Shown here one piece after another: positions 1,740 through 61,506 of a stretch of 64,000 bases of DNA. Position numbers and translations under genes: made by a program. Position 1 is the stretch's first letter; every line of letters begins with the position of its first letter. Source of the stretch: an uncultured Desulfospira sp. (GTDB lineage: Bacteria > Desulfobacterota > Desulfobacteria > Desulfobacterales > Desulfobacteraceae); contig OY760175.1 in NCBI GenBank assembly GCA_963663165.1, forward strand, positions 6,677,035 through 6,741,034, given 5' to 3'. The notes below the pieces were generated by a model. The model saw only the letters and a program-made list of their open reading frames with translations. It was not told the origin of the DNA and did not search any database.

Positions 1740-1834
1740 TTATATGAAAGTCTCACTAACAAGCTGAAAAGACTATCATTTTTCGTTATGGGCGGTGCTT
1801 GGTTGGATAACCAAGGCGGCCCGTGGCCGTTATA
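1740..1834 (+). repeat. Modular two-hairpin repeat, copy 1 (solo)
   Basis: ttatatgaaagtct...agactatc-attttc-gttatgggc...gcccgtggccgttata; matches 11 other copies. Confidence 0.9.
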
Positions 1835-4681: not shown

Positions 4682-4706
4682 TACCGGACTTTTTTCTATG
4701 AAAATT

Positions 4707-4858
4707 GTAACTGTTCAGCAGTGCCCCATCTTCGCTCATTCAGGCCTTCTCACATAGCAAAAGTATGCTACGAAGTCCTGACTAAACAAATATGAAGCAC
4801 TGATGAACAGTTACGGACCCTGGTTTTGCTTAGTTTTCAGCATTAGCTGAATAGTTAC
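4707..4858. mobile_element. MITE-like element with 13-bp TIRs and an 8-bp target-site duplication
   Basis: Ends GTAACTGTTCAGC / GCTGAATAGTTAC (1 mismatch), flanked by direct TGAAAATT at 4699-4706 and 4859-4866; extra internal end at 4797-4814. Confidence 0.75.
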
Positions 4859-4866
4859 TGAAAATT

Positions 4867-5394
4867 TTATATGAAAGTCTCACTAACATCCTGCGAAGAC
4901 TTTCATTTTTTGTTGTGGACGATTCTTGGTTGGATAATCCAAGCCGTCCGTGACGGTTTTATATGAAAGTCTGACTAACTACCCGTAAAGACTTTCAATA
5001 TTTGTTGTGGGCGGTGCTTGGTTGGATAACCAAGACGGCCCGTGGCCGTTATAAGAAACTGGAGACAAGAAACAAGAGACAAGAGGGCGAAGCACCTGCG
5101 GTGCCCAATTTATAGTCTACCGTTGCTGGTATCTTCAGTTTCATTATTCGTTGTGGGCTTGTGGCCCGTGGCCGTTATATGAAAGACTCAGCAACCTTTT
5201 GAGTTCTTTCAATATTTGTTGTGGGCGGTTCTGGGTTGGATAACCAAGGCGGCCCGTGGCCGTTTATAAGAAACTGGAGACAAGAAACAAGAGACAAGAG
5301 GGCGAAGTACCTGCGGTTCCCAATTTATAGTCTACCGTTGCTGGTATCTTCAGTTTCATTATTCGTTGTGGGCTTGTGGCCCATGGCAGTTATA
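4867..5394 (+). repeat. Tandem array of five modular two-hairpin repeat units (copies 2-6)
   Basis: Units start at TTATA 4867, 4959, 5049, 5175, 5264 and the array ends at TTATA 5390-5394; hairpin-1 order is short, short, long, short, long. Confidence 0.92.
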
Positions 5395-5517
5395 TAAATA
5401 ATTGGATTCAATCTTTGTTAAATCGTACTGAATTCATTTGGCGATTACGCTTTGGGCCTCTGAAAAAACTTCATTGGCTGGTATTCCAGGACGTAGCCCT
5501 TGCTGATATTCTTTATT

Positions 5518-7912: not shown

Positions 7913-8473
7913 ATGGATCGGATGGCTGGCTTTGTTGCGGCCTTTAAGGTTTTTGTGGAAAAATTGGCCCGGATGGCCCTTTACCTTGGCATGGGCTGGG
8001 TCCTGGTGATGATGCTGGTGACCACGGTGGATGTGGCCGGCCGGTATTTTTTGTCCAAACCCCTGCCCGGGGCCATTGAACTCGGGCAGATCATGCTGGC
8101 GGTGTTCGGCATCCTGGGCATGGCCTATACCCATTTTTCCGGGGCCAATGTCCGGGTGACCATGTTTACCCGGCTGTTCGGGCCAAGGGTTCAAAGCGCA
8201 TTGGAGGTCCTGGCCGGTGTCCTTTGCCTTCAGGTCATGCTCATGCTCACCTGGTACGGCGGCGTGACCGCCATGGAAGAGCTTGCCGCCGGCACCACCA
8301 CGGACCAGTTGAAAATACCCATTTATCCCCTGTACTGGCTTTTGAGCGTGGGCGCAGGCCTTTTAAGCCTTGTGATCCTTTCCCGGATCATGGAAAAGGG
8401 GCTTGAAATAGGAGGCCGGAGACCGGAAACGGGAGACCGGAAGAGAAAGACAGGGGGCGATAGACCGGTTTGA
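7913..8473 (+). CDS. dctQ: TRAP transporter small permease
   Basis: Four TM segments, DVAGRYFLSKPLPGAIEL; position between dctP and dctM. Confidence 0.88.
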   Translation: MDRMAGFVAAFKVFVEKLARMALYLGMGWVLVMMLVTTVDVAGRYFLSKPLPGAIELGQIMLAVFGILGMAYTHFSGANVRVTMFTRLFGPRVQSALEVLAGVLCLQVMLMLTWYGGVTAMEELAAGTTTDQLKIPIYPLYWLLSVGAGLLSLVILSRIMEKGLEIGGRRPETGDRKRKTGGDRPV

Positions 8474-8598
8474 ACTTTTTGAGGCGAGAAAAAAGGGAAA
8501 AGGGATGGCGGATCAAATGCAGCGGGGAGCTGTTTGCCTTTTTTGTCCCCCCGATTGCTGATTTCCGGTTTCCGGCCTCCGGTCTCCGGCCTCCGGTC
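8411..8598. repeat. Inverted pair of imperfect heptamer tracts
   Basis: ggaggccggagaccggaaacgggagaccgg (from 8411) opposite tttccggtttccggcctccggtctccggcctccggtc (8562-8598). Confidence 0.7.
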
Positions 8599-10015: not shown

Positions 10016-10294
10016 ATGATAAAAAGTTTTAAACACAAAGGGTTAAAGAAATTTTTTACCACCGGCAGCACCGCCGGGATAAATCCGAACCATGCGCCAA
10101 AGATAGAGGTGCAATTGCAGGCATTGCACACGGCAATTGGTATTGATGATATGGATATCCCGGGTTGGCGCCTGCATCCCCTAAAGGGGGAGCTTGAGGG
10201 GCAATGGGCGATAGAGGTCAGTGGCAATTGGCGGATTGTTTTTGAGTTTGAAGATGGTCACGCAAATGTCGTTGACTACAGGGATTACCATTAA
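10016..10294 (+). CDS. higB: HigB/RelE-family toxin
   Basis: MIKSFKHKGLKKFF...GWRLHPLKG...VSGNWRIVFEF...VDYRDYH. Confidence 0.92.
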   Translation: MIKSFKHKGLKKFFTTGSTAGINPNHAPKIEVQLQALHTAIGIDDMDIPGWRLHPLKGELEGQWAIEVSGNWRIVFEFEDGHANVVDYRDYH

Positions 10295-10308
10295 AAAAAG
10301 GGAACCAT

Positions 10309-10617
10309 ATGGAGATAGAACAATTCAAACCTATCCATCCGGGAGAGTTTATAAAGAGGGTTTATATGGAACCTTTTAAAATCGGCTCTAATGAATTAAG
10401 CCGGAGATTAAAGGTCAGCTCCGGGGCTGTCAGCCGTTTGCTGAACGCTAAAATGGATATTTCTCCGGCCATGGCATTAAAACTTTCCCAGGTGCTGGGC
10501 AGGTCGCCGGAAAGCTGGCTGCTCATGCAGGGAAATTACAATTTATGGAAGGAACGGCAGCAATTGGATTTGACCTTATATGAACCAATTGATTTTGCCC
10601 AATTGCAAGCCGGTTAA
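10309..10617 (+). CDS. higA: HigA-family antitoxin
   Basis: PIHPGEFI, HTH, ISPAMALKL...SPESWLLMQ. Confidence 0.92.
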   Translation: MEIEQFKPIHPGEFIKRVYMEPFKIGSNELSRRLKVSSGAVSRLLNAKMDISPAMALKLSQVLGRSPESWLLMQGNYNLWKERQQLDLTLYEPIDFAQLQAG

Positions 10618-11082: not shown

Positions 11083-11499
11083 ATGGCAAAGTGGATGACC
11101 ATAAAAGAGGCGCTCGAAGAACTCGATATGTTTGCCCTTTATGATGATGTGATTGAGTCCTGGATCAATGAGCTTGAAAACTTGGCCCCCCTTGAGGTGG
11201 ACCTCAATGATCTGCTGGAGGAACATGATGAGGAGTATGAATTTTTCCAGGATCAGGACGGGGACTGGGCTGAAAGCTTTGAGCGGAACTTAAAGGAAGC
11301 CATTACCATTATCCTGGAAGAGCAGGGCCATATCATTGATGATGAATTTTCCAACGGGGCCATGGATGATGAGGATATGGAAGACTTGTATGAGGACGGG
11401 TTTGACGAGGACCCGGAAAAATCAGACCGCAGGCATGGGGCGGATATGGACGATTACGATGATTACGACGGTTACGATAAAGAAGACGATTATTACTAA
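11083..11499 (+). CDS. Highly acidic hypothetical protein
   Basis: Strong RBS AAGGAGG; Asp/Glu-rich 138-aa ORF. Confidence 0.75.
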   Translation: MAKWMTIKEALEELDMFALYDDVIESWINELENLAPLEVDLNDLLEEHDEEYEFFQDQDGDWAESFERNLKEAITIILEEQGHIIDDEFSNGAMDDEDMEDLYEDGFDEDPEKSDRRHGADMDDYDDYDGYDKEDDYY

Positions 11500-11589
11500 C
11501 GGCCACGGGCCGCCTTGGTTATCCAACCAAGCACCGCCCACAACAAATATTGAAAGTCTTCTCAGGACCTTAGTGAGACTTTCTTATAA
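11497..11589 (-). repeat. Modular two-hairpin repeat, copy 7 (solo, inverted)
   Basis: taacggccacgggc...gcccacaacaaatattgaaagtct...agactttcttataa; its TAA is the stop codon of the upstream ORF. Confidence 0.9.
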
Positions 11590-15334: not shown

Positions 15335-15436
15335 GAAACGGGAAGAAAGGAGGCCGGAGAGCAGCAAACAGGAGGCCGCATATTGCGACTCCCTTAGGTT
15401 TACGCATCCGGTCTCCGGTCTCCGTTATTTCGTTTT
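15335..15436. repeat. Heptamer-arm inverted element with a 25-bp core
   Basis: Purine arm ...ggaggccggaga... and pyrimidine arm ccggtctccggtctcc; core 15383-15407 matches 45864-45888 inverted (19/25). Confidence 0.55.
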
Positions 15437-25582: not shown

Positions 25583-25880
25583 TTATAAGAAACTGGAGAC
25601 AAGAAACAAGAGACAAGAGGGCGAAGCACCTGCGGTGCCCAATTTATAGTCTACCGTTGCTGGTATCTTCAGTTTCATTATTTGTTGTGGGCGGTTCTTG
25701 GTTGGATAATCCAAGCCGTCCGTGACGGTTATAAGAAACTGGAGACAAGAAACAAGAGACAAGAGGGCGAAGCACCTGCGGTGCCCAATTTATAGGCTAC
25801 CTTTGCTGGTATCTTCAGTTTCATTATTCGTTGTGGGCGGTTCTTGGTTGGATAACCAAAGACGGCCCGTGGCCGTTATA
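25583..25880 (+). repeat. Tandem pair of long-form modular repeat units (copies 8-9)
   Basis: Two ~147-bp units joined at TTATA 25729-25733; long hairpin 1 plus long hairpin 2. Confidence 0.92.
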
Positions 25881-34755: not shown

Positions 34756-34851
34756 ATAACGGTCACGGACCGTCTTTGGTTATCCAACCCGAGGATCGGT
34801 CCATAACAAAAAATAAAAGTTTTTACAGGCTGGTGGTGAAACTTTTATATA
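34756..34851 (-). repeat. Modular two-hairpin repeat, copy 10 (diverged, inverted)
   Basis: Minus strand tatataaaagttt...aaactttta-ttttt-gttatggaccg...cggtccgtgaccgtta; paired substitutions in both stems. Confidence 0.8.
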
Positions 34852-43995: not shown

Positions 43996-44687
43996 CTCTG
44001 AACGGCCCGGAGGGGTTCACCCGCCACCTGGAAAAAGGGCTGGCCAGGGCAGGCCTTTGCGTCACCGATCAGCAGATGGACCTGATGGCGGCCCATGCCG
44101 CAGAACTTTTGGCCTGGAACAAAAAGATCAACCTCACCGCCATTACCCGGCCGGACCAGGTGGCGGAAAAGCATTTTGTGGATTCTCTCATAATCGCAAA
44201 GATGATGCAGCCCCTGACCGCGGTGCTGGATATAGGGTCCGGCGGCGGGTTTCCGGCCATCCCTTTAAAAATCGTCCTTCCCAAGATTCGTTTTATCCTG
44301 GTGGACAGTTCCAGAAAAAAAGTCAACTTTCTCAAGCATGTGATCCGGACCCTGGGCCTTGACGGGATTGAGGCGGTTCACGCCCGGGTGGAGGACCTGC
44401 ACCAGGACCCGGAATACGAAGGGCAGTTTGACGCGGTCATATCAAGGGGTTTTGCCAGCCTTGAAAAATTCGCAGACCTTTCCCTCCCGTTCCTGAATCC
44501 CGGCGGGATCATCCTGGCCATGAAGGGCCCTAACGGCGTGGCAGAGATCACCCCGGATCTGGAGACCCGGTTTGAAATTCAGATAGATTCATACCAGCTT
44601 CCCTTTGAGAAATCCGATCGGTGCCTGATTCAAATGGCGGACGGACAAGAGACAAGAGACAAGAAACAAGAGACAAGAAACAAGTAG
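43992..44687 (+). CDS. rsmG: 16S rRNA m7G527 methyltransferase
   Basis: WNKKINLTAI, HFVDSL, LDIGSGGGFPAIPL, KKVNFL; the tail is encoded by a heptamer tract. Confidence 0.95.
   Translation: MTLNGPEGFTRHLEKGLARAGLCVTDQQMDLMAAHAAELLAWNKKINLTAITRPDQVAEKHFVDSLIIAKMMQPLTAVLDIGSGGGFPAIPLKIVLPKIRFILVDSSRKKVNFLKHVIRTLGLDGIEAVHARVEDLHQDPEYEGQFDAVISRGFASLEKFADLSLPFLNPGGIILAMKGPNGVAEITPDLETRFEIQIDSYQLPFEKSDRCLIQMADGQETRDKKQETRNK
44644..44684 (+). repeat. Heptamer tandem tract (GACAAGA/AACAAGA)
   Basis: gacaagagacaagagacaagaaacaagagacaagaaacaag; same heptamers as inside the long modular repeat. Confidence 0.85.
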
Positions 44688-44688
44688 G

Positions 44689-44760
44689 GTAGAGTGGGCA
44701 AAAGCGCAGCGTTGCCCACCATTGACGCAAACGGCGGGCACAAAAAGCGTGGGCCAGCAC
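44689..44760. repeat. GTAG-type REP-like hairpin with a degenerate partner
   Basis: GTAG-a-gtgggcaa...ttgcccac followed by ggcgggcacaaaaagcgtgggcc. Confidence 0.45.
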
Positions 44761-45731: not shown

Positions 45732-45928
45732 ATGTGGACAGAGTGGACATGGTGGACAGAAGTGGACCTGGCCAGGGCTTTGATCTGTCCGCAAAGTCCA
45801 CCTCGTCCACTTTGTCCACCAGAAATTTTGCGGATTAAACACCGCCCTCACCAGGTCAAGGGAATGCGCAAACCCTGCGGATTCGCAACTCCGGTCTCCC
45901 GTTTCCGGTCTTCGGTCTCCATTCTTCC
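45732..45928. repeat. Inverted ~9-mer tracts (gtggac.. / gtccac..) followed by a heptamer pyrimidine tract
   Basis: gtggacaga gtggacatg gtggacagaa gtggacc opposite gtccacctc gtccacttt gtccacc; then ctccggtctcccgtttccggtcttcggtctcc. Confidence 0.65.
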
Positions 45929-46014
45929 GCCTTGATATTCCTTGACTTTCCAGGTGCCAACCATTAAAAAGAAAAGTTTGATATTTATAATAAAAATCAC
46001 CCCGTGGAGGAATA

Positions 46015-54099: not shown

Positions 54100-54284
54100 T
54101 TATAAGAAAGATATCAATAAGCTATTGAGTTCTTTCGACTTTTGTTGTGGGTTGTACCTCAGTGCTGATATGTCAGGTCAGCCCGTGGCTGTTATATGAA
54201 AGACTCAGCAACCTGTTGAGTGCTTTCAATATTTGTTGTGGGCGGTTCTTGGTTGGATAACCAAGACGGCCCGTGGCCGTTATA
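54100..54284 (+). repeat. Tandem pair of modular repeat units (copies 11-12)
   Basis: Units 54100-54196 (novel hairpin-2 insert) and 54192-54284 joined at TTATA. Confidence 0.88.
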
Positions 54285-54476
54285 TGCACTTATTGTCCTG
54301 AATCCGGAACTTTTCCCTTGCCCCTCTCGGTTTACACGCACTTTAAACAGGTTGCTCCCCAAATTTGCCGCAGAGAGCCCTTTTTCTAAATTTCCAATGG
54401 CTTCAATGAGATGATGATTCTCCAAACTCATTTTCTTTGCCCACTTCTTAAACCATTTTGTGCATAATTTTTTCAT
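54285..54476 (-). pseudogene. RelE/ParE-family toxin truncated by the repeat
   Basis: TKWFKKWAKK...ANLGSNLFKVRV..EGQGKSSGFRTI then runs into repeat sequence; no antitoxin follows. Confidence 0.75.
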
Positions 54477-54948: not shown

Positions 54949-55968
54949 TCATAAACTGTCAAGCCAGGCAAGGATTTCAGCACTATTTCCCCAGTCGATT
55001 AACTCATCAATTTTTTTGTCATGAGTTATTTTCGATTGCATGTATTCCATGAGCGTATTTTGGACTTCCCGTTTTTTTGACAGATCCAGCTGCAGATAGG
55101 TCATTGTTGATTCAATACTTTGATGACCAAGACGATTTTTGATATCCGATACCGGAGCACCTGAACTGACCATGTTGACCGCGCACGAATGCCTGAAGCA
55201 GTGAGCCGGGCTCAGTCCTTTCAGCCGTTTTTCCGGCAAGGCCAAGGTCAAATACTTCCTGCAAATTTTATTAATTCCATGTCTGGTCATTTCCCGCTTC
55301 CGTTGATTGATAAACAGCCTATGGGCAAATAAAGGGATGGGATCTACCCTGTGATTGCTGATATAGTCCGAGATCAAGGAGGCGGTTCTGGAGCATAGAT
55401 TAATCAACCGGTATCGGTTTCCCTTTCCCAGGACCGCAATGGTTTCGTTTTCGGGGTCAAAATAATCAAATTCCAATGTGGCAATTTCACTGGCCCGGGC
55501 ACCGGAGTCATAAAGCAGATGGAGAATGGTAAAATCCCTCATGCCTTCTTTCTTTTTCAGATCAACGGCACTGAAGACTTTCATGATTTCTTCAGGATAT
55601 AAAAATCCCATCACCTTTTTTTGAGCTCTTTTCTGAGGGATGTTCAGGAGCCTATCGGCAATTCGTTTTTTATCCGGATGCATGAAGCGGATCATCTTGG
55701 CCAAAGACTTAATCACGGCCAGGCGTTGGTTTCGAGTCTGCACGCTATTTTTTCGGTTTTTTTCCAGATGCTGGAGAAAGGCAAGCACTGCATCCACCGT
55801 TAAGTGTTCGATTTTCAATGACTTGATTTTTATTGAGTGATGATTCGCCAGAAAATGCAGAAATAACGACAGGCTCTGCTGGTAAGCTTGAACACTTTGT
55901 TTGCTCGTCCCTTTTATCGAGGGCAAGTATTCATAAAAATACTGGTGCAGGCAACTTGTCAATCTCAT
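54949..55968 (-). CDS. Tyrosine recombinase (RitC-like)
   Basis: TRNQRLA, GARASE, GKG, HCFRHSCA, LGH, TMTY. Confidence 0.92.
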   Translation of the reverse strand: MRLTSCLHQYFYEYLPSIKGTSKQSVQAYQQSLSLFLHFLANHHSIKIKSLKIEHLTVDAVLAFLQHLEKNRKNSVQTRNQRLAVIKSLAKMIRFMHPDKKRIADRLLNIPQKRAQKKVMGFLYPEEIMKVFSAVDLKKKEGMRDFTILHLLYDSGARASEIATLEFDYFDPENETIAVLGKGNRYRLINLCSRTASLISDYISNHRVDPIPLFAHRLFINQRKREMTRHGINKICRKYLTLALPEKRLKGLSPAHCFRHSCAVNMVSSGAPVSDIKNRLGHQSIESTMTYLQLDLSKKREVQNTLMEYMQSKITHDKKIDELIDWGNSAEILAWLDSL

Positions 55969-56942
55969 GCACCCTCGCTTTTTGATTTCGAAAAATCAAA
56001 CAGTTGCCAACGGTGCTCAGCATCCAGTACCTTCAAATAATAGGTTGTGTATTTGTATTTGCTGTGCCCCATATAAGCCGCCAGTACAGGCAGGGCATTT
56101 TGGCAGGATTTTCCTTGCTGTTTTATCCTTTTCAGCGTGTTCACAGCAAACGAATGCCGCAGGGAATGATGTGAAGGCTGGCTGAAGTTTGTAGTACCGA
56201 TTATTTTCCGGGAGTGATCAAAATTAATATCTGTGAGAGCCTGTTTAAATCTGCGATTTATAAACATACGTACCAGTTTTTTCCCTTTCACCTTTACCAG
56301 CAAAAAAGGGCTGTCATCCTCATCAGGGAATAACCGGCGAACTTTTAGCAGGTTGTTGATTTCATAGGCTACGGCTTTGGGTATAGGGATCAATCGATCT
56401 TTTCTAAATTTTGTCTTTTCAATATAGATTGTTCTTTCTTCGGGCCTGTAATGGGTTTTCAATAAATTAAGTGTCTCCGAGGTTCTAAGTCCGCACCGGG
56501 CCATCAACAAAAAGGCTATATAAGCACTGAAATCTGACACATAGAATCTCTGGCTTGTCCGCATCGACTTGATTACAGCTTTGAGAAAACGGTCTGTTTC
56601 TTCCGGAGAAAATATAAAAGGAATAACGTGATTTTCCTGTAGCTCAGTGATTTCCTGCAACGGATTTTCCAGGATCACATCTTTGCGTATAAGATAATTG
56701 AAAAAGATCTTGAGCATTCTAAAAATCGTATTTATGGACCGGGGTTCAAGATCAAGTTCTGCTCTGAACCGGATAAAAAACAGCGGATCAAAGGATGTCC
56801 AAGTCACTTGTTTTTCAGACACATATCGATCAAGTACCCTAAGACCGTACATCATTGAGGTGTTTGAGTACCCCAGTTGAAAACGATATGTGATAAAATC
56901 CTCCATTTGTTCAGCCAAGAAACTTTTAAAACGTTTCATCAA
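55965..56942 (-). CDS. Tyrosine recombinase (RitB-like)
   Basis: CGLRTSE, TKFRKDRLIP, HSLRHSFAVNTL, LPVLAAYMGH, TTYYL. Confidence 0.92.
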   Translation of the reverse strand: MMKRFKSFLAEQMEDFITYRFQLGYSNTSMMYGLRVLDRYVSEKQVTWTSFDPLFFIRFRAELDLEPRSINTIFRMLKIFFNYLIRKDVILENPLQEITELQENHVIPFIFSPEETDRFLKAVIKSMRTSQRFYVSDFSAYIAFLLMARCGLRTSETLNLLKTHYRPEERTIYIEKTKFRKDRLIPIPKAVAYEINNLLKVRRLFPDEDDSPFLLVKVKGKKLVRMFINRRFKQALTDINFDHSRKIIGTTNFSQPSHHSLRHSFAVNTLKRIKQQGKSCQNALPVLAAYMGHSKYKYTTYYLKVLDAEHRWQLFDFSKSKSEGA

Positions 56943-57813
56943 GGATAACCTCCCGCATCAGGCCGATATGAATGCTCAGATACTTTTTTGTCGAATCGAG
57001 GCTTTTATGTCCCATCATTTCTTTGATTTCATAGATGGACATACCGGACTCCAACATATTCTGGGCAAATGAATGCCGCAGCCAGTATGTGCTTGATCCA
57101 AGATTGTTTTTCGTCATGCATTCTTTTATATCTCGGGGGATATCGCTCCTGTTGGCCGGTTTATAAGGTGGTGTCAACTGTAAAAATAGAACTCGGGATT
57201 GAGTTTCAGGTCTCCCGCCCACAATATAGGCAGTGATCGCTTTGATTATGTTATCGGGAAGGGGAAGATGAGCAGGATTGCAATTTTTTCTTGAACGGAT
57301 AAAAATCTCTTTCTGTCTAAATGAGATGTCATCCAGAGTTAGCAACCTGATTTCTTTCGGCCTTAACCCCAGATAACATGCCAGATGCAGGGTGGCATTG
57401 GTGCGAAGGTCTTTTGCTGTTGACAGGTCCAGACTGTCAAACAACTTTTGAATTTCATGAGTGCGCAAAAATTTGGGCGGCTTTGGTGGTCCGAACTCCG
57501 GAGGGCTTACCACTAAAGCGCCAAGGTCCTTTTTAAGATCTCCGTGTTGATAAAGGTACTTTAAAAATCTTCGTACATGTGACCGGTGCGTCCTGCATGT
57601 CCCGGGAGCACGCCCCTTGTTGCAGACTGCTAAAAATTGATCGACCTGGTCAATGGATATGTTGCCCAAAGAGGTGTTTTCCCCCTGAAGATAGGCCGCA
57701 AAATTTGTTAATGTCCTTTTTGTATAGGACACCGCATCCCCGGAAGCTTGATCTCGACAGTAGTCCAGGTATTTCTCCACTGCTTTGGTGACCTTATTGT
57801 CAACTTCCATCAT
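56926..57813 (-). CDS. Tyrosine recombinase (RitA-like, short)
   Basis: GLRPKE, YWLRHSFA, MGH, TKKY; start set at ATG 57813 behind GGAGG. Confidence 0.88.
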   Translation of the reverse strand: MMEVDNKVTKAVEKYLDYCRDQASGDAVSYTKRTLTNFAAYLQGENTSLGNISIDQVDQFLAVCNKGRAPGTCRTHRSHVRRFLKYLYQHGDLKKDLGALVVSPPEFGPPKPPKFLRTHEIQKLFDSLDLSTAKDLRTNATLHLACYLGLRPKEIRLLTLDDISFRQKEIFIRSRKNCNPAHLPLPDNIIKAITAYIVGGRPETQSRVLFLQLTPPYKPANRSDIPRDIKECMTKNNLGSSTYWLRHSFAQNMLESGMSIYEIKEMMGHKSLDSTKKYLSIHIGLMREVILDETF

Positions 57814-58285
57814 GGCTGCCTCCAAAAGATTGCAGGACAAGGCTGCGGATGGTTGCCGGATCGTGCAGTTCCATGTCTTTTTGGCTTTGAAGGGGGGCTG
57901 CTGAGGGCAGAGCCACTCTTTCCGGAAGGGACAATACTTGGAAAAGGTTGCCGTCAAATGCGACCAGGTTCTTGTCAATCAAGGCATTCCTGGCAAGGAT
58001 GTAGTCATCAACACAAATCCTGAGCAGGGTGCAGATTTTATCATAGCCGTAATAGGACAGCCCATGACGATCCGCCACGATAATCAAAAACAGGTACAGC
58101 AGGAGCTGATGATGATCCAGGCTTGCCCAGAATCCGTCCCGCAGGAACCGGTGTTCGATAAAAGCAAAGCTTCCTGCAATTTTTCTGATGCGGCAGGGAT
58201 CTATGGGATTTTTTGCAATGGACGCACGAAAACGGCGTTGGGGCTTTTGATTCCGATTTTTGGCTTTATTTTGTCCGGTCTCCAT
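57800..58285 (-). CDS. Putative winged-helix DNA-binding protein of mobile elements
   Basis: SFAFIEHRFL...LLLYLFLIIVADRHGLSYYGYDKICTLL...ARNALIDKNLV; AAGGAGG RBS; overlaps the RitA-like gene. Confidence 0.65.
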   Translation of the reverse strand: METGQNKAKNRNQKPQRRFRASIAKNPIDPCRIRKIAGSFAFIEHRFLRDGFWASLDHHQLLLYLFLIIVADRHGLSYYGYDKICTLLRICVDDYILARNALIDKNLVAFDGNLFQVLSLPERVALPSAAPLQSQKDMELHDPATIRSLVLQSFGGSHDGS

Positions 58286-59995: not shown

Positions 59996-60295
59996 ATGCA
60001 TGTAATAGCCAGACCTCAATTGATACAGTTTTACCAGCGAGAAGGATGCAAAGATGCAAAAGGGCCTATTGATGCATGGTGGCATGAAGCCAAAAAAGCG
60101 ACCTGGCAATCCTGGCCAGAAATAAAAGCACAATATGGATCAGCCAGTATTTTAAAAAACAACCGTATTGTCTTTAATTTAGGAGGCAACAAGTACCGCT
60201 TGGTGGTAAAAATCAATTTTCCAACTCAGACTGTTTTTATCCGGTTCGTTGGGACCCATAAAGAGTATGATAAAATTAATGCGGAGGAAATATAA
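59996..60295 (+). CDS. higB: HigB-family mRNA interferase toxin
   Basis: MHVIA...AWW...W....IK..YGSAS....RIVFNLGGNKYRLVV....FIRFVGTHKEYDKI. Confidence 0.92.
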   Translation: MHVIARPQLIQFYQREGCKDAKGPIDAWWHEAKKATWQSWPEIKAQYGSASILKNNRIVFNLGGNKYRLVVKINFPTQTVFIRFVGTHKEYDKINAEEI

Positions 60296-61506
60296 TGATT
60301 AACAAACTTATAAAAACAGAAGAAGACTATAGTTTAGTTCTATCCCGCATTGAAGATTTGATGGATGCTGAAGCAAATACGCCTGAAGCGGAAGAGCTTG
60401 AACTGCTTGCCACACTAGTCGAGCTTTATGAAGATGAACATTATGCGATGGACACACCAGACCCTATAGATGCAATAAAATTTAGAATGGAACAATTGGG
60501 AGTCAATCAGCAAGGTTTGGTACCATTTATTGGCAGCAAGAGTAAAGTCTCTGAGATCCTAAATAAAAAAAGGCCACTAACTCTCTCAATGATGCGATCT
60601 CTTCATCAAAATTTGGGAATACCTGCTGAAATTTTCCTACAAAAAACAGTTGGGAGTTTTCCCAAGGCAATTCCCAATATTGAATGGCATCTCTTTCCAT
60701 TGAAAGAAATGTCAAAACGAGGGTGGATTCACCCAGCAAAGAACTTAAAAGACTCAGCTGAAGAAACGATACGGCTTTTTATTAACAATTGTTGTCCAAA
60801 TGGAGAAACGATTGAAGCTTGTTTTAGAGAAAATTCAGGGAATCGAACGAACGCAAAAACAGATAGTTATGCACTTAACTCATGGTGCATGAGGATCATG
60901 GCGCTTGCCCAAAAAAAATCTCTACAAAAAAAATTTAATCACGCAAATTTCACACCTGACAACCTTAGGGAGATAGCTAAATTAAGTTTTTTTGATGAGG
61001 GGCCCTTACTTGCCCGGGAGTTTCTCGAGAAACATGGAATCCATCTAATCATTGAAAGACACCTACCAAAAACATATTTGGATGGCGCTGCCTTATTACT
61101 TGAAGATGCAACACCTGTTGTTGGATTAACACTGCGATATGATAGAATTGATAATTTTTGGTTTTGCCTGCTTCACGAATTAGCCCATATTGTATTGCAT
61201 CTTGGCAAAGAAAATCAAAATTTATTTGTAGATGATATGGATGTCAGAATACCTGGAAAAGGAAAACAAAGCGATATTGAAGGCGAAGCGGATTTCCTTG
61301 CTATTGAATCTTTAATTCCGAATCAAGTTTGGTCCACGGCTGCTGCAAAATCAAATCCTACAAAAAAAAATGTGCTTGAATTAGCTGAATATCTAAAAAT
61401 TCACCCAGCTTGCATTGCCGGTAAAGTTAGATTTGAGCAAAATAATTTTCGGTTGTTATCCAAATTAGTTGGATCAGGTAAAATTAGGACTCTTTTCGGT
61501 GTCTGA
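60295..61506 (+). CDS. HigA-type HTH antitoxin fused to an ImmA/IrrE metallopeptidase domain
   Basis: PDPIDAIKFRMEQ, SKVSEILNKKRPL, TYLDGAA, RYDRIDNFWFCLLHELAH (HExxH). Confidence 0.9.
   Translation: MINKLIKTEEDYSLVLSRIEDLMDAEANTPEAEELELLATLVELYEDEHYAMDTPDPIDAIKFRMEQLGVNQQGLVPFIGSKSKVSEILNKKRPLTLSMMRSLHQNLGIPAEIFLQKTVGSFPKAIPNIEWHLFPLKEMSKRGWIHPAKNLKDSAEETIRLFINNCCPNGETIEACFRENSGNRTNAKTDSYALNSWCMRIMALAQKKSLQKKFNHANFTPDNLREIAKLSFFDEGPLLAREFLEKHGIHLIIERHLPKTYLDGAALLLEDATPVVGLTLRYDRIDNFWFCLLHELAHIVLHLGKENQNLFVDDMDVRIPGKGKQSDIEGEADFLAIESLIPNQVWSTAAAKSNPTKKNVLELAEYLKIHPACIAGKVRFEQNNFRLLSKLVGSGKIRTLFGV

Follow-up and report, generated by a model that had tools for sequence, protein, structure and literature searches.

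The repeat units that recur between the genes of the window (the whole stretch of 64,000 nucleotides analysed here) are in all probability MITEs of an IS110-family IS with IS1111-like features, mobilised in trans and stacking on one another by way of a guide that matches their own end. The initial annotation regarded them as an unrecognised class; they are instead a variant of a described kind of element, the IS110-family MITE. Throughout, G000 denotes the 6.74-Mb genome that contains the window, C1 its contig, G001 a sister genome and "mini" a single repeat unit. The strands of units are those of the initial annotation, and the transposase of the parent IS reads on the opposite strand.

Repeat units of the window and their relatives

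All 12 copies reported earlier for the window were recovered at their places. A pattern match gives a single mini of 91 nt at 1741..1831 (+). The five-unit array begins with unit 1 (4868..4958, +), of the short type and joined through four T to unit 2 (4960..5050, +), which is also short and is joined through two T to unit 3 (5051..5176, +); the latter combines a long hairpin 1 containing 7-mer repeats with a short hairpin 2 whose length class is that of the parent IS. Unit 4 (5177..5264, +) is again of the short type and unit 5 (5265..5391, +) of the long type, and we infer that unit 5 is the oldest of the five because the original target flank is retained there. A single mini at 11498..11588 (-) and a tandem pair of the long type at 25584..25877 (+; units 25584-25730 and 25731-25877) both correspond to orthologous sites that are empty in G001, while the old and diverged single unit at 34758..34851 (-) has an orthologous site that is occupied there too. 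A tandem pair at 54101..54281 (+; 54101-54193 and 54194-54281) completes the set.

Several other features of the window lie near these units. Directly before the array, at 4705-4862, is a second, unrelated repeat with terminal inverted repeats, present at 81 loci of G000, many of them 152-158 bp long and 98-100% identical, with a mini within 60 bases at 12; it has the look of a further young MITE. Runs of 7-base repeats occur between genes at 8411-8594, 15395-15427, 44633-44692 and 45878-45932; they resemble the runs that flank four-helix-bundle genes, and hairpin 1 of the long units is filled with similar words. Toxin-antitoxin-type genes (HigB/RelE families), one of them beside a protein with an IrrE-like peptidase domain, are found at 10016-10617, 54192-54476 and 59996-61506.

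The family is far larger than the window suggests. The right-half pattern matches 270 times in the 6.74 Mb of G000 as against twice in 2 Mb of order-3 Markov sequence, and a profile search returns 263 loci above 30 bits, nearly all of them intergenic. ORFs of at least 200 aa cover 76% of G000 and contain 3 of the 263 loci. By a strict pattern there are 209 units at 158 loci, made up of 118 singles, 32 pairs, 6 triples, one four-unit and one five-unit array. Of 24 further genomes from the same family, 18 have matches to a covariance model built from 27 units, several of them with 75 to more than 100 each, and so has 1 of 16 genomes outside that family; viral contigs searched with the scaffold pattern gave none. 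Between genera the scaffold and its spacings remain constant and the loops are wholly different.

Read in the orientation of the IS, a mini consists of an AA core, a left end (C-NNN-CAYG, a hairpin, CAC-AAC, six bases and an inverted repeat), a short filler, and a right end made up of the inverted repeat, TATA and the AA core. Unit 2 of the array may serve as the example (all features +). Its hairpin 1 (4964..4997) has arms at 4964-4972 and 4989-4997 that are the subterminal inverted repeats. The earlier impression of a repeat with no real TIRs is not supported, as the autonomous element carries a perfect 10-bp pair. Its hairpin 2 module (5004..5048) is the extended IS left end and begins with an internal GTT, a repeat of the terminal G-TT; a terminal 5-bp hairpin (5036..5048) adjoins the TT core (5049..5050; AA in the orientation of the IS), which is common to unit and target. 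This terminal hairpin is perfect in 162 of the 173 mid-length modules of G000 and in none of the 19 short ones. Both stems covary among the 27 units, which come from several genera (0.207 as against 0.142 in shuffled alignments, a level reached in 0 of 500 shuffles), although these are related sequences and not independent ones. The claim that only one strand folds well stands for RNA energies at the base of hairpin 2 and fails for DNA, where the two strands are about equal.

The length of hairpin 2, counted from the internal AAC to the true core, is 23-25 bases in the IS and 23-24, 43-51, 57-64 or 80 bases in the minis of G000, with the motifs and spacings that flank it fixed on both sides. 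One unit of G000 has a clean end at the internal GTT, as a second, degenerate one seems to have, which fits the use of that site as a spare core. At 25 places on C1 (e.g., 2377426, +) an extra hairpin of 19 bases lies within the loop of the terminal hairpin. Another unit follows none of these 25 ends as compared to 67 of 194 short ends, one further diverged end being followed, and the minis that carry the extra hairpin may be older founders of arrays.

The parent element and its RNA

The initial annotation saw no cognate enzyme within the window and named IS110 among the enzymes worth seeking elsewhere, and it is an enzyme of this family that was found outside the window. The parent IS is an IS110-family element of 1,738 bp, present in G000 as three copies and one end fragment. 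The copies lie on C1 at 4130996-4132733 (-), 4366465-4368202 (+) and, in interrupted form, 4960282-4963903 (+), and are identical over their aligned length. The copy at 4366465-4368202 splits a host gene whose frame resumes on the far side after an additional A at the junction, and the interruption in the copy at 4960282-4963903, of about 1.9 kb, follows directly after the RNA region. The transposase is a DEDD/Ser protein of 419 aa (PF01548 and PF02371) that matches NF033542 with 238 bits against a cut-off of 140, and its catalytic D22, E73, D109/D112 and S310 align with those of IS621. About 110 nt of non-coding DNA precede the gene and about 370 nt follow it.

The ends of this element tie it to the minis. 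On the strand opposite to that of the initial annotation the left end reads AA-C-CCC-CATG, a small hairpin, CAC-AAC, six bases and TGAAAC, and the right end reads GTTTCA-TATA-AA; the two are the two halves of a mini, with the same fixed motifs at the same spacings, the subterminal inverted repeats form a perfect 10-bp pair, and the transposase gene with its roughly 370 non-coding bases occupies the position of the loop of hairpin 1. The minis thus lack the gene and carry both ends of the cognate IS, as do MITEs of the MITEPpu9 type.

The transposase was found in 20 of 121 genomes of the family. Of 70 transposase loci examined, a number that takes in duplicates and contig-end fragments, 46 have the left-end pattern, the most distant of them at 54% protein identity, and its carriers include records of Desulfobacter, Desulfobacterium, Desulfatibacillum, Syntrophus and Desulfomonilaceae; it was found at none of the 14 loci with 36-42% protein identity. 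One IS110 relative of 42% identity (L215, in genome G021) has a similar left-end layout, but its long non-coding region lies upstream of the gene. In a plasmid collection the best 25 matches are 36-40% identical. The flanks change at both IS ends among the assembled contigs of four runs, and no end-to-end circle joint is listed among these contigs. In genome G005 copies of the IS sit within arrays of minis.

Downstream of the gene, about 140 nt after the stop codon, lies a conserved RNA motif whose stems covary (0.459 as against 0.220 when shuffled, 0 of 500; 23 sequences), and which does not occur in G000 outside the three IS copies. Five variable bases before an invariant AAC form the guide. 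In 25 distinct guide-target pairs (from 41 loci, with duplicates removed) the guide agrees with the bases on the left side of the core in 23, 23, 23, 15 and 6 cases, counted outwards from -1 to -5. Averaged over the 10 guide types, 3.41 of 4 bases match, as compared to 1.44 after permutation (0 of 20,000), a figure that overstates the certainty because related elements are not independent; the guides AGTAG, AAACC, GTAAG, CAACT and CCGTA each fit their own site. Judged from these alignments, the RNA appears to present a structured loop that matches the target, which is a mark of the IS110 family. A conserved CATAT-AAAA segment of the RNA matches the right end plus the core; this is a match and not covariation, because the right end is invariant. 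Neither a right-target nor a right-donor guide was identified in the RNA, and the target logo is nearly uninformative on the right.

Insertion, targets and the growth of arrays

Comparison of empty and filled sites, as the initial annotation had proposed, indicates that this family of IS110-type MITEs is real and recently mobile. About 1.2 Mb of G001 was fetched, and its flanks are ~93% identical to those of G000. Empty orthologous sites number 22 (13 of 73 G001 loci and 9 of 159 G000 loci) and occupied ones 17 (8 of 73 and 9 of 159); 9 are unclear, and the remaining 184 could not be mapped, on account of the extent of G001 that was covered. In the cleanest pair the two sites differ by exactly 91 bases, the unit running from TATATGAAAG to GGCCG with the TT shared on both sides, and the empty sites in general place insertion precisely at the shared TT (AA) core. 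Nine of the 13 empty sites of single units could be read by eye, and the left T run is longer by one in six, by two in two and unchanged in one. At the 22 empty sites of minis, as at the flanks of the IS, no target duplication longer than the short core accompanies insertion, with a variation of about one base in the T/A run. Slippage of the core along runs of A would explain the variable number of T.

A rival reading takes the units for domesticated structured RNAs or regulatory modules, with arrays kept for a function. The copies common to G000 and G001, the position of units at gene boundaries and the ease with which hairpin 2 forms as RNA on one strand through G-U pairs all lean in that direction. 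Among mapped sites, however, the 22 empty ones exceed the 17 shared ones, and the conserved bases of the units are the bases of the IS ends; Rfam, moreover, offers no match (none in the window at the gathering score and none in 4800-5450 at E<=1). We regard such a functional array as highly unlikely, and a free-standing array of structured RNAs finds no support, although an incidental influence of single copies on the genes beside them is conceivable.

Hairpins at both ends and the lack of a target duplication beyond the core would also suit peel-and-paste or rolling-circle transposition by an HUH enzyme (IS200/IS605, RAYT, IS91) or copying by a reverse transcriptase (RT), and G000 has 14 Y1 matches. 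None of the six Y1 loci whose flanks were read is bracketed by unit ends, however, and Y1, Y2 and RT families were not found in the high-copy genome G009 (80% complete), nor was the IS110 family there. An IS110 element with the same ends exists, and the HUH or RT reading is to our minds the least probable of those considered, close to being dismissed. The Y1 enzymes also show no link to copy number, and RT and IS91 were tried without success as mobilising enzymes. Four-helix-bundle (IVS) genes, which the 7-mers of the long units had brought to mind, were not bracketed by units at any of the 5 hits in G000 or of 30 loci in the family; two 23S rRNA genes of G000 (C1 1024977-1025291 and 3719718-3720032) have an intervening sequence with a four-helix-bundle ORF. 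G000 has no match to GxxExxY, and no mobile enzyme was recognised by eye among the ORFs between 38 close pairs of loci.

The targets themselves follow the logo (T)TT|A-K-W-N-R-R-A-A, which is like the unit's own left end, and the initial annotation's view of a non-autonomous mobile element that enters T/A-rich sites, its own ends included, is borne out. Of the 158 targets in G000, TAT accounts for 64, ACT for 40, AAT for 25 and ATA for 11, the respective background shares being 1.4, 0.4, 1.9 and 2.8%; the 40 ACT sites have 39 different flanks. The second half of that view, a folded single-strand intermediate, is not needed, as the data are explained without one, but a local fold of hairpin 2 is still conceivable.

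A tyrosine recombinase (XerC/D, an integron integrase or the three-recombinase element of the window) acting on such a folded single strand has to be weighed at this point, given that the crossover adjoins TT and the arm is similar to Xer arms, that no complete tyrosine recombinases other than XerC and XerD were found in the high-copy genomes G009 and G019, and that one array of G000 lies directly behind xerD. Against this, the third base after TT is G or C in the likely dif of G000, and at this position the targets are 1% G and 1% C; an integron integrase was not found in G009, G019 or G020; and the units show no replichore bias (77 versus 81). Nor do 263 dispersed loci with a target logo that fits neither arm resemble a Xer-exploiting element (IMEX). 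Since it also leaves the ends shared with the IS and the guide covariation unexplained, we consider a tyrosine recombinase a very improbable agent. The likely dif lies at C1 744264 (-), at the switch of KOPS-like 8-mers and near the GC-skew maximum, with xerD at 683979 and xerC at 698778. An integron-type integrase of 464 aa is encoded at C1 4194963-4195562, and no attC-like site was found in the surrounding 25 kb. In the window, 54949-57978 (-) holds three successive tyrosine recombinase genes, an arrangement that we take to be RIT-like; some 16 such trios, of three sequence families, occur in G000, and no link between them and the minis was found.

Under the IS110 reading, arrays stack head to tail because the guide RNA matches the minis' own end. 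The guide of G000 is AATAT followed by AA and the right end of the unit is CATAT-A-AA, so that the end of a unit is itself a target, in a register that leaves two T. The joint is accordingly not the single shared TTATA that had been described: of 86 junctions in G000, 54 have two T, 23 three, 6 four and 3 either one or six. In G005 the guide is ATATA, shifted by one base, and 48 of 54 junctions have three T, with ATA targets at 12 of 16 array ends; this explains three-T junctions, and the idea that they always represent insertion at the other end was rejected. Two further genomes with the AATAT guide were examined at 15 loci each: G110, with at least 150 minis, has two T at 12 of 18 junctions and TAT at 9 of 14 targets, and G062, with at least 128 minis, has two T at 10 of 19 and TAT at 4 of 8. 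The junctions of G017 (AATAT) are mixed (four with two T, four with three and one with four), and in G004 (AGTAG) TAG occurs at 0 of 13 mini targets. The guide ATAAT of G095 does not match the element's own end, and that genome has four IS copies and only three weak minis.

The resident guide is thus followed in G005, G110 and G062 and partly in G000, and not in G017 or G004. That the landing motif or the junction register follows the guide in three of four other readable genomes supports mobilisation in trans, because the minis carry no RNA of their own. Within G000 the resident guide accounts for only 64 of the 158 targets (those with TAT), and TAT was read by eye at only one of nine G000-specific insertions; the 40 ACT and 25 AAT targets require past guides or looser pairing. 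Both motifs correspond to guides of other relatives, and the passage of several guide variants through the lineage of G000 is the simplest reading. The mini-rich genomes G001, G009, G013, G019 and G022 gave neither a transposase match at E<=1e-60 nor a match to the RNA-bearing right end, and the presence of the transposase in 4 of 10 high-copy as against 1 of 14 low-copy genomes is not significant (Fisher p=0.12). A test of array growth by T runs in G000 agreed with prediction only in part, with 4.13 T for singles, 4.75 for two-T pairs (p=0.007) and 5.38 for three- and four-T pairs (n=8), the last being opposite to what was predicted.

A model of trans-mobilisation and its known counterparts

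How the minis move can be proposed from IS110 biology, in particular from the excerpts of PMC11208160, PMC12288879, bioRxiv 2024.04.26.591405, PMC13626964 and bioRxiv 2025.10.25.684509 that deal with binding of the RNA by the transposase, formation of a circle at the core and insertion. The transposase and bridge RNA of an intact copy would act in trans on a mini, whose two ends would be joined into a circle at the core, and the circle would then recombine into a target. The choice of target would depend on only three to four bases plus the core, and insertion sites would be plentiful because so little is needed. With a guide of AATAT or ATATA the right end of a mini would be a perfect target and new units would stack on old ones, the register of the guide deciding between two-T and three-T junctions.

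A bolder extension, which we put forward tentatively and think somewhat less likely to be right than wrong, combines a split donor, a single guide of three to four bases and a drifted guide to account for runaway stacking and for old landing motifs that record lost guides. The hairpin that keeps the core and the left inverted repeat apart, at 23-80 bases free in its length, might be looped out in the complex, with the RNA segment CACAAC pairing beyond it and so restoring the usual 11-base spacing between the repeats, and drift of a guide to match the element's own end might set off the stacking of minis. The invariant ACAAC of the RNA could pair with the far side of hairpin 2, or it could form a small invariant stem within the RNA; because of this alternative, and because nothing covaries, the split donor is offered as a hypothesis. 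Caution is also called for because mutation of the palindrome of ISPpu9 did not stop the formation of circles, according to the portion of PMC12288879 that describes it.

Searches of the literature found no description of this repeat or of its IS clade, and the sole IS110-family MITE that they returned was MITEPpu9; a name registered in ISfinder is possible. This module (ssr9) and its parent ISPpu9, of Pseudomonas putida KT2440, make up the closest known system, and the comparison that follows draws on excerpts of PMC12288879. Both cases comprise an IS110-family IS and a non-autonomous module that has copies of the IS ends at its borders, both recombine at a shared dinucleotide, and copies of the module lie beside the IS, some of them in tandem. 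A short palindrome, GCCC-N4-GGGC, a few bases inside the left end of ISPpu9 has the same pattern in several of the relatives described here. ISPpu9 differs in its AG core and its specific REP target, where the present elements have an AA core and a loose, one-sided target of three to four bases. MITEPpu9 has 8 copies and encodes a small RNA, whereas the minis number in the hundreds, form arrays of up to 8 and are nearly bare ends; in the IS110 group, according to the same excerpts, the bridge RNA lies upstream of the gene, in contrast to its downstream position here.

That downstream position is one of several likenesses to the IS1111 group (ISEc11, ISPa11), as the latter is characterised in parts of bioRxiv 10.1101/2024.04.26.591405 and PMC11208160: a DEDD transposase, a long downstream non-coding region, subterminal inverted repeats, a three-base extension of the right end and a multi-branched RNA on the donor side. 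The inverted repeat is 10 bp here as compared to the usual 11-13 (range 7-17) given for the group in the relevant section of PMC11208160. In IS1111 elements the left repeat is set 7 (or 6) bases in from its end and the right repeat 3, in the account excerpted from bioRxiv 10.1101/2024.04.26.591405. The right end of the present elements fits this spacing, but the left extension amounts to 6-7 bases only when the count starts at the internal AAC; the true left end is a further 23-25 bases outward in the IS and a further 23-80 in the minis, which sets them apart from IS1111 proper. The protein is 419 aa long, and most relatives of 36-42% identity are without these ends.

With IS621 (excerpts of PMC11208160; PDB 8wt6) the parent element has in common its domains, its catalytic residues, conservative recombination at a two-base core and RNA segments that match the target and donor sides of the core, but in sequence the two transposases are distant (E 3.5e-9). 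IS621 is described in the same excerpts as recognising 11 bases of the target, to the left and right of a CT core, and here only the left guide was found. What is unusual in the present family is its loose one-sided targeting, by which its own end becomes targetable, together with the hairpin, 23-80 bases long, by which the core is separated from the left inverted repeat. On the reading that we prefer, a very abundant repeat family of sulfate-reducer-type bacteria is explained as the by-product of a bridge recombinase, and it offers evidence from nature of gene-less cargo being moved in trans by an enzyme of this kind and of junctions whose form depends on a single base of guide register. The target motifs of old copies would allow the guide RNAs of the past to be read from a genome. 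In its loose, one-sided targeting of an AA core and in the variable hairpin at its donor end, the family differs from both IS621 and ISEc11.
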